A stretch of 6,626 bases of DNA, from the IMG/VR virus record IMGVR_UViG_2734482581_000014. The stretch is one strand, 5' to 3'. The position numbers and the translations under genes were made by a program. A model generated the notes under the pieces. That model was not told where the DNA came from. It searched no databases and saw only the letters and a program-made list of their open reading frames with translations. Each line of letters starts with the position of its first letter. Position 1 is the first letter of the stretch. This document shows positions 3,881 through 5,469 of this stretch, in pieces. The stretch comes from a virus (lineage: Duplodnaviria > Heunggongvirae > Uroviricota > Caudoviricetes).

Positions 3881-4426
3881 TCAGGAAGAACCTTCCGGAG
3901 AGACGGACCATTCAATGGCGTTATATGAGGATTTATCAGTGATGGTGCTGAAATCCATCGCCTGCAGCGATTTCGCGTAAATACGGTACGCTTTCAGTTT
4001 TTCCCGGTCTTCGTCGCTGATTAGCCCCAGCAGCAGGTCTTCTTCCCATTCCCCTGTCCGGGCACTGACCTGAGCCAGAAGGGCATCACGCTCATCTTCC
4101 GCTTTGAGTCTGTAGTCAAAGACAAATTCATCATTGCGGTAAAACCAGTAACCCGGCGCGGTAATGCGGCGGTTGGCGGTAATATCAGGAACTTCAATAA
4201 CACTGGCGTTACGGGGTTCAATGCCTGTCACATCCTTACCGACCCACACCACGCGCCCGTCTCCGGTGTAAACCATTTTTATGGTGTCACTGGCAAAGTT
4301 CTTCTGTTCTTCATACCAGTTTTTGCCGTCTTCCGAAAAAAGCCAGGTGACATCATACTGTTTTGTCAGCTGATATTATTCCGCGGTTTTCGGATTACCT
4401 GCCGTAATATTTTTTAAATGCAACAT
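3881..4426 (-). pseudogene. tfa: Tail fiber assembly protein (Tfa, P2 gpG / Mu U family) interrupted by an in-frame ochre codon at codon 17
   Basis: From ATG at 4424-4426 the frame reads [19 protein letters not shown](4376-4378)[27 protein letters not shown]...VIEVPDITANRR...AIEWSVSPEGSS. Homology to Tfa runs across the stop, and homologues have EQYQLTK here, implying CAA->TAA. The longest stop-free ORF (3881..4276, 131 aa) lacks the conserved N-terminus. Confidence 0.8.
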
Positions 4427-4428
4427 TG

Positions 4429-5469
4429 TTAAATACTCGCTACGTTATACCAGGTGCCATTAATCAGTTTTTGCAGCGGTCGGTAATACACGCCGTTGAC
4501 GTTATCCGCTGAGTTACGGCCGGTATCCGATATCGATATCCCTGACAGCCCGTGTCCCGAAGGTGAGCGAAATGTCCACGAAACGGTGTTACTGCCGGGG
4601 GGGTAATACATTTCATAACCATACCGCACATCCTGCACGCCACCATTTCGCTGCTGGTAACGGGCATCAAAGTTTCCGTAGTCTGACGGTGTTACCCGTC
4701 CTGTAACGTTTACAGCTTTATTACTCTGGATACTGCCACTCTGAAAACGCAACACATGCACGCTATTGGCATAAACATCCAGCAGGCCATCACCATTCTG
4801 TTTGAATCCGGTGTCATTATCACCAAGAACAATTGAATTCCCCCCCAGGGCGTTCTGAACGCCGATACCCAGCGCACCATTGACCTGCGAACCACCGCCA
4901 ACAGACACTTTATGCGACATGGATATTTCACCCGTCCGCAGATTAATGGTGAACGGGCGCAGGGGACCAATATCGCCATTTTCCCCCTGACCTTCACTGG
5001 TGGGAATAAGGTGCAGGCACTCTTCCGAACGACGAAAAATCAGGCCAAAAGCTTCGTTGAAAATCCTCAGCGCATTAACACCACGGATTTTCAGCTCTCC
5101 GGTCATGGTGTCGCCATCACGCTGAACGGCATTTTTTGCCTTATCCACCGTGGGTTTTAATCCGAGGTTTTCAACAGCCTCATCCCTGTCTTCCACATCC
5201 GAAAGGTTATTTTTTATCAGCAATGCCTCTTCGTTAATTGCACCGCCCACCAGCAATAATATAGCCTTATATAGCTGGTCGTGTTCTTCTTTATTCAGTT
5301 CTATCCCGGCCTTCTCAATGACACCACAGATTTCCTCCTGAATGGCATTCCACATGGCACTGTTCAGCCAGGTAGCAAGACGTCCTGTGCGAAGATTTCC
5401 GTCAGTAAATCCGTTCTTACCCGGACCAAACTTATCTTTTACCGCAGTCAGCGTATCAATCCTGTGCAT
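4429..5469 (-). CDS. Phage tail fiber protein, about 346 aa, with P2 gpH-like C-terminal receptor-binding region
   Basis: The C-terminal segments NALGGNSIVLGDNDTGFKQNGDGLLDVYANS and RPLQKLINGTWYNVASI closely match the P2 gpH C-terminus (NALGGSSIVLGDNDTGFKQNGDGILDVYANS ... RPIQKYINGTWYNVAQV). It lies between the gpI-like and Tfa genes, as in the P2 J-I-H-G order. Start is chosen at ATG 5467-5469 (AGGA 5 nt upstream); in-frame ATGs at 5473-5475 and 5479-5481 are alternatives. It overlaps the upstream gene by 14 nt. Confidence 0.8.
   Translation of the reverse strand: MHRIDTLTAVKDKFGPGKNGFTDGNLRTGRLATWLNSAMWNAIQEEICGVIEKAGIELNKEEHDQLYKAILLLVGGAINEEALLIKNNLSDVEDRDEAVENLGLKPTVDKAKNAVQRDGDTMTGELKIRGVNALRIFNEAFGLIFRRSEECLHLIPTSEGQGENGDIGPLRPFTINLRTGEISMSHKVSVGGGSQVNGALGIGVQNALGGNSIVLGDNDTGFKQNGDGLLDVYANSVHVLRFQSGSIQSNKAVNVTGRVTPSDYGNFDARYQQRNGGVQDVRYGYEMYYPPGSNTVSWTFRSPSGHGLSGISISDTGRNSADNVNGVYYRPLQKLINGTWYNVASI

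Follow-up and report, generated by a model that had tools for sequence, protein, structure and literature searches.

The tail fibre assembly gene (tfa) of a prophage remnant beside ssrA in Shigella sonnei is interrupted by an ochre codon at codon 17, and this inherited TAA allele is found in essentially every S. sonnei sampled. The best explanation, to which we give a probability of about 90%, is that tfa is a lineage-wide nonsense pseudogene undergoing neutral decay in a phiP27-like remnant broken by IS1. The analysis started from a window of 6,626 nt (the whole stretch of DNA analysed), which outside a 249-bp gap is 100% identical to the S. sonnei chromosome CP022457.1 (L018).

Results

A nonsense codon in a Mu gpU-type gene

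Minus-strand translation of 3878-4432 places the tfa ATG at 4426-4424 and the normal stop at 3883-3881. The 5' end reads ATG TTG CAT TTA AAA AAT ATT ACG GCA GGT AAT CCG AAA ACC GCG GAA TAA TAT CAG CTG, the TAA being the reverse complement of tta at 4376-4378. Beyond it the frame is open for all 164 codons, and the protein ends in EGSS before the normal stop. The stop of fibre 1 (TAA, 4431-4429) lies 2 nt ahead of the tfa ATG at 4426, and both genes are co-oriented.

With Gln17 restored, the tfa product scores 87.7 bits with Pfam PF02413 (Caudo_TAP; cut-off 22.1) over residues 40-178, and the same family is recorded on the 131-aa open reading frame (ORF) that follows the stop. Residues 1-158 of the restored product align with residues 1-164 of PDB 5yvq_B, which is Mu gpU (E=8e-39), and the N-terminal motif M(L/M)HLKNI..NPKT.EQYQLTK is common to the tfa product and the Mu gpU family. 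The profile match, the homology of the N-terminal domain from the same start and the synteny are all those of a Caudo_TAP / Mu gpU-type Tfa; only the uninterrupted frame is missing, given the TAA at codon 17. Judged by its sequence, tfa is thus a putative pseudogenised member of the Mu gpU / phiP27 L55 Tfa family. An AlphaFold2 model of the intact allele (protein P0034), built on a shallow alignment of 6 sequences, had a mean pLDDT of 48.8, with residues 1-60 below 50, a confidence too low for the model to be of use.

Seven homologues were aligned with the gene: three E. coli prophage copies (L001, L002 and L003), S. flexneri 2457T, phiP27 L55, vB_Apl-pPE4 and Mu gpU. All seven have the same start Met, within M(L/M)HLKNI, and Gln17. 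Residues 1-50 contain 23 of the 52 invariant alignment columns and are the most conserved block of Tfa. A first-pass annotation of this DNA had proposed a single CAA to TAA change at codon 17 of tfa, with homology continuing across the stop. Its coordinates, codon number and base change are all correct, CAA (Gln) being present in every intact homologue examined, and the nonsense mutation in a Mu gpU-type gene is borne out by the Caudo_TAP match, by 5yvq_B and by the seven-homologue alignment. The same annotation had considered that homologues might begin downstream of the stop; the Met start shared by 7/7 speaks against this. The Tfa query is covered to at least 80% by 133 of the 173 records that it matches in the phage collection and, among the matches listed, all align from residue 1.

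The remnant and its setting beside ssrA

The window is a whole S. sonnei draft contig bounded by IS4 and IS1, and the end of the prophage remnant (phiP27-like, with a Mu-type tail) that it contains is the one next to ssrA (Table 1). Breaks of this kind, in IS1 and IS4, are typical where Shigella is assembled from short reads; complete genomes have InsA/InsB genes at the position of the window's IS1 end. Between the two insertion sequences lie yfjF, ratA, smpB and ssrA and then, from ~2264 and all on the minus strand, the end of the prophage, with the DUF4376 gene, fibre 2, tfa, fibre 1, the Mu-gp48/YmfQ gene and the 3' part of the baseplate gene J. ARAGORN found no tRNA gene in the window other than the tmRNA. 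The order of the module (DNA-circularisation, hub, V, gp46, J, gp48, fibre, Tfa, fibre 2, DUF4376, att) is that of phiP27 L48-L58, and the baseplate-fibre order up to the att end places the element among phiP27-like prophages. The prophage genes of the window correspond to phiP27 L52-L57, up to attR, and an intact-looking prophage at ssrA in E. coli C311 has the same gene order. The exact fibre 2 protein occurs on 674 S. sonnei contigs.

Table 1. Features of the window, in order of position (strand relative to the strand presented; a point marks features given no strand)
Feature	Position	Strand	Remarks
End of an IS4 copy	1-90	.	Contig end; E. coli C311 match begins at 91; 100% identity to L014 into the IS4 transposase gene
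ssrA (tmRNA)	1703-2065	+	ARAGORN; chromosomal site beside the prophage end; junction same in E. coli C311
DUF4376 gene	2264-2638	-	phiP27 L57 position; 124 aa here vs 207
Tail fibre 2	2589-3857	-	phage_tail_N, 422 aa; phiP27 L56 position; Pfam PF08400, 212.6 bits
tfa (putative pseudogene)	3881-4426	-	Mu gpU / phiP27 L55-type tail fibre assembly protein; 181 codons + stop, interrupted at codon 17
First in-frame ATG ORF after the stop	3881-4276	-	131 aa; ATG 4276-4274, codon 51 (ATG51)
Shine-Dalgarno and GTG start	4250-4264	-	GGAG (4264-4261), 8-nt spacer, GTG (4252-4250, codon 59; GTG59); 123-aa product; anti-SD duplex -6.6 kcal/mol
CTG codon 20 (CTG20)	4367-4369	-	6 nt (two codons) after the tfa stop; start of the 162-aa 'Tfa' in many public annotations
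Ochre codon TAA	4376-4378	-	Codon 17 of tfa; next base T (TAA-T context); CAA in all intact homologues
Tail fibre 1	4429-5481	-	phiP27 L54 / Mu gpS position; open; 350 aa from ATG 5481, or 346 aa from SD-preceded ATG 5469
Baseplate wedge gene, Mu gp48 / YmfQ family	5456-6046	-	Intact; Pfam PF10076, 89.6 bits
Baseplate J / Mu gp47, 3' fragment	6046-6543	-	Cut by IS1; Pfam Baseplate_J profile positions 132-255 only
IS1 copy, terminal 83 bp	6544-6626	.	Contig end; 100% identical to several IS1 copies in L014 and L018

The surroundings of the remnant vary among S. sonnei genomes. IS4 flanks an inversion in complete genomes, with bamE-recN on its far side in L020 and raiA-pheA in L014; the ssrA-phage block has been described as 16 phage genes within an IS4-flanked inversion (PMC12795559). 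In L015 and L019 (12150-21269) a second, integrase-bearing prophage directly follows the remnant's DUF4376 gene and replaces the ssrA-smpB flank of the other genomes, which suggests tandem occupation of the ssrA site. An S. sonnei read-set contig (L004, 2593-3716) has the TAA-bearing tfa and fibre 2 joined to a variant DUF4376 3' end with 94% identity and then to ipaH (NEL-domain), an arrangement also present in E. coli FDAARGOS_944 (L001, 7299-9284), and four contigs (L006-L008 and L012) break exactly at window position 2427. These observations suggest that S. sonnei has a second, paralogous copy of the module linked to ipaH.

TAA across S. sonnei and CAA outside it

The TAA is present in all ten complete S. 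sonnei chromosomes, which come from different projects and whose tfa is base-for-base that of the window, and in 10/10 independent read-set (Logan) assemblies of the species. The first-pass annotation had raised the possibility of a sequencing error, with C as the true base. For such an error one could cite the one-base difference from the nearest E. coli homologue and the one unique oddity of the contig, its 249-bp deletion in the DUF4376 gene. However, the site lies outside any homopolymer, the truncated ORF was already annotated in strain Ss046 (131 aa; AAZ89357.1 / Q3YYQ5), and because TAA is found in 20/20 independent S. sonnei assemblies an error is effectively excluded and, in our estimate, vanishingly improbable. 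With TAA in all 20 assemblies and a CAA allele outside the lineage, the distribution is that of a lineage-fixed nonsense pseudogene, and the inheritance of the stop across S. sonnei supports the pseudogene reading, one of two that had been offered for tfa at first pass.

A stop at codon 17 was found in none of the seven aligned homologues and in none of the seven S. flexneri copies that could be read; upstream masking affects an eighth. The closest intact DNA copy in the E. coli collection, in FDAARGOS_944 (L001), differs at 4 of 546 nt (99.3% identity), and one of these differences is window position 4378, C rather than T, giving CAA rather than TAA. The S. sonnei tfa protein is identical to P0034 except for the stop at codon 17, and P0034, the exact Gln17 protein, occurs on 18 contigs outside the TAA lineage. 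It is found there in intact phiP27-like prophages at another chromosomal site (L036 and L037), in two further Shigella-like chromosomes whose copies, at ssrA, carry other IS damage (L034 and L035), and on contigs that run into the IS1/J junction of the window (L043, GCA_900158265.1, and L041, GCA_900159285.1).

Other copies of the region show variation of their own. Four of the seven readable S. flexneri copies of tfa (L024, L025, L028 and L029, at ~5950-5960) have A5 rather than A6 in codons 5-6 and thus an N-terminal frameshift, which is either independent decay of tfa or a long-read homopolymer error. In S. flexneri 2457T the frame is intact, and the gene is annotated from Met20. An assembly with the intact CAA allele (L042, 1086-3361) carries a tandem duplicate of the fibre-1 gene, as two 366-aa ORFs, upstream of tfa.

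Decay of the surrounding prophage

Damage in the element extends well beyond tfa. J is cut by IS1 in the window (6544), 2.1 kb upstream of tfa, so that the intact essential baseplate genes of a functional prophage are not all present. J is likewise cut in all 10 complete S. sonnei chromosomes: IS1 genes are called between the J halves in 6/10, and the other four have the same C-terminal fragment of J. Where IS1 genes are called, the two pieces of J on either side measure 224 and 131 aa, and a second IS1 follows the tape-measure gene. The DUF4376 gene has a 249-bp in-frame deletion (83 codons) at 2427/2428, with a 2-bp CA microhomology at the junction, in this contig only among the S. sonnei copies examined. 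The resulting 124-aa protein (WP_052994375.1) is a database singleton, and the deletion could be real or an assembly collapse. Fibre 1 has lesions elsewhere: one S. sonnei assembly (L005) has a frameshift from G7 vs G8 (minus strand) at 4842-4848, with the variant position at 4846, and in three complete genomes (L016, L017 and L023) the fibre-1 gene calls are short, at 252 and 215 aa, which suggests further damage. A C/A polymorphism at 4602, in a C7 run of fibre 1, segregates among S. sonnei assemblies.

Given the truncation of J, the second IS1 upstream, the DUF4376 deletion and the fibre-1 lesions of other genomes, the earlier idea that decay had struck tfa selectively finds no support. Nor does it matter that an intact fibre would be left without its chaperone: both fibre genes are open in the window, but the baseplate to carry their products is missing, and the point is moot because no virion or tail could be built from an element broken by IS1. 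That the decay of tfa is recent, as was also proposed, fits the data well, in that tfa has no other disabling change and an otherwise identical Gln17 allele (P0034) is extant. S. sonnei is a very young clone, and the lack of further decay in tfa is therefore uninformative either way.

Possible starts after the stop

Gene callers have placed the start of the post-stop ORF at CTG20 (162 aa) on at least 1000 contigs, at GTG59 (123 aa) on 773 and at ATG51 (131 aa) on 16, which amounts to far more than a thousand S. sonnei contigs. The complete genomes include five with CTG20 calls (9489-9977 in L014, L015, L018, L020 and L021) and five with GTG59 calls (9606-9977 in L016, L017, L019, L022 and L023). 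Upstream of CTG20 the Shine-Dalgarno match is weak (anti-SD duplex -3.5 kcal/mol), and upstream of ATG51 there is none (-0.2 kcal/mol). GTG59 is the only internal start in tfa with a recognisable Shine-Dalgarno sequence, and it appears from these features to be the sole credible one. A scan of 3800-5600 for promoters found none that was sigma-70-like, and so nothing to suggest that a truncated product has a promoter of its own. A product from any of the three starts loses part or all of residues 1-50. These residues belong to the N-terminal domain, which in Mu Tfa reportedly binds the fibre, the C-terminal helices being reported to trimerise (PMC9608196).

Discussion

The course of events that we favour is a simple one. 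A single C-to-T transition turned Gln17 (CAA) of tfa into an ochre stop; translation of tfa, probably coupled to that of the upstream fibre gene, would then end after 16 residues, and as no full-length Tfa would be made the gene would be a pseudogene. Most likely IS1 had inactivated the element before the TAA arose. Such an order fits the neutral decay of a prophage that was already dead, in a genome where pseudogenes and IS copies accumulate. S. sonnei genomes hold about 660-710 pseudogenes each (PMC12795559).

The order of the lesions can be approached through the CAA-bearing contigs L043 and L041, which have the same IS1/J junction as the window and only 3-4 base differences from it in ~3.1 kb, one of them CAA vs TAA. 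If these contigs share ancestry with the S. sonnei locus, the junction next to an intact CAA allele suggests that IS1 may have entered J first and that tfa gained its TAA second, which is the order that neutral decay predicts. It also bears on the proposal that loss of tfa was positively selected in S. sonnei, for instance because it halted a fibre or a tailocin-like product. The TAA allele is in almost all sampled S. sonnei, and some S. flexneri copies have a different N-terminal defect, the A6 to A5 frameshift at codons 5-6. However, drift and hitch-hiking would be expected to fix such an allele in a pathogen that is clonal and bottlenecked, long-read homopolymer errors may account for the S. 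flexneri frameshifts, and with J apparently disrupted by IS1 already in the CAA contigs nothing would be left for selection to act on. We consider selected inactivation very unlikely.

Whether some form of Tfa is still made is a separate matter, and here too the pseudogene reading is preferred. A product lacking the N terminus, for which ribosomes would re-initiate or start internally at CTG20, ATG51 or GTG59 and which would keep a chaperone or other function, draws on the intact ORF after the stop, on the GGAG ahead of GTG59, on retention of most of the Caudo_TAP domain, on the C-terminal helical part, which is reported to mediate trimerisation (PMC9608196), and on the treatment of the 162- and 123-aa ORFs as proteins in public annotations. 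Yet so young a mutation would be expected to leave the ORF behind it intact in any case, the in-frame starts are separated from the stop by an out-of-frame ATGATG, and IS1 has broken the phage machinery to which such a product would contribute. Enterobacteria initiate very poorly at CTG. The restart at ATG51 proposed in the first-pass annotation finds no support, as this codon has no Shine-Dalgarno sequence and a product begun there would be missing residues 1-50, where conservation is highest within the domain reported to bind the fibre. Function in a truncated Tfa is therefore improbable, and the narrower proposal that one is expressed from GTG59 or CTG20 in S. sonnei, with its C-terminal trimerisation module and a retained role, is more improbable still; if true, it could for example aid folding of the products of the still-open fibre genes, in a non-virion use. 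Decoding of the stop, by programmed read-through or a suppressor tRNA, would leave full-length Tfa being made. The frame is preserved across the stop, but nothing specific speaks for this reading: the in-frame stop is not conserved, there being no conserved recoding signal because no homologue has a stop at codon 17, and, apart from the tmRNA, the window is free of tRNA genes. In E. coli, few contexts terminate translation as strongly as TAA followed by T. We regard read-through as having next to no likelihood.

The TAA in tfa is ordinary gene decay of a known kind and involves no new mechanism. Its biological weight is small: S. sonnei is a pathogen whose genome is known to decay, and tfa adds another pseudogene to one of its degraded prophages. 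Its practical value lies in annotation and in typing. The 162-, 123- and 131-aa 'Tfa' proteins of most public S. sonnei annotations are best corrected to post-stop ORFs of what we take to be a pseudogene, whose three invented starts hide the nonsense mutation. The CAA/TAA site is a clean single-base lineage marker, and together with the shared IS1/J junction it could help to order the decay of the ssrA prophage among Shigella lineages.

From the perspective of known systems, the closest functional counterpart is Mu gpU (TfaMu; PDB 5YVQ, PF02413), which S. sonnei tfa resembles in its alignment from residue 1, its N-terminal motif and its place directly after a tail fibre gene. Unlike Mu gpU, S. 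sonnei tfa is interrupted by TAA, lies outside any invertible G-segment and differs in its C-terminal 20 residues. The Stx2e phage phiP27 has the identical order of baseplate, fibre, Tfa and second-fibre genes up to the att end (L48-L58), and its Tfa (L55, NP_543107.1) has 76% identity to that of S. sonnei over the full length. However, phiP27 is a complete phage with an intact Tfa, whereas the S. sonnei element is a remnant beside ssrA, with IS1 insertions and a nonsense codon. Compared with other pseudogenes of Shigella prophage remnants, S. sonnei tfa is alike in having a single-base nonsense change in a phage gene of an IS-riddled region, and nothing about it is different in kind; what is particular to it is that the ORF after the stop is called a normal 'tail fiber assembly protein' in most annotations.
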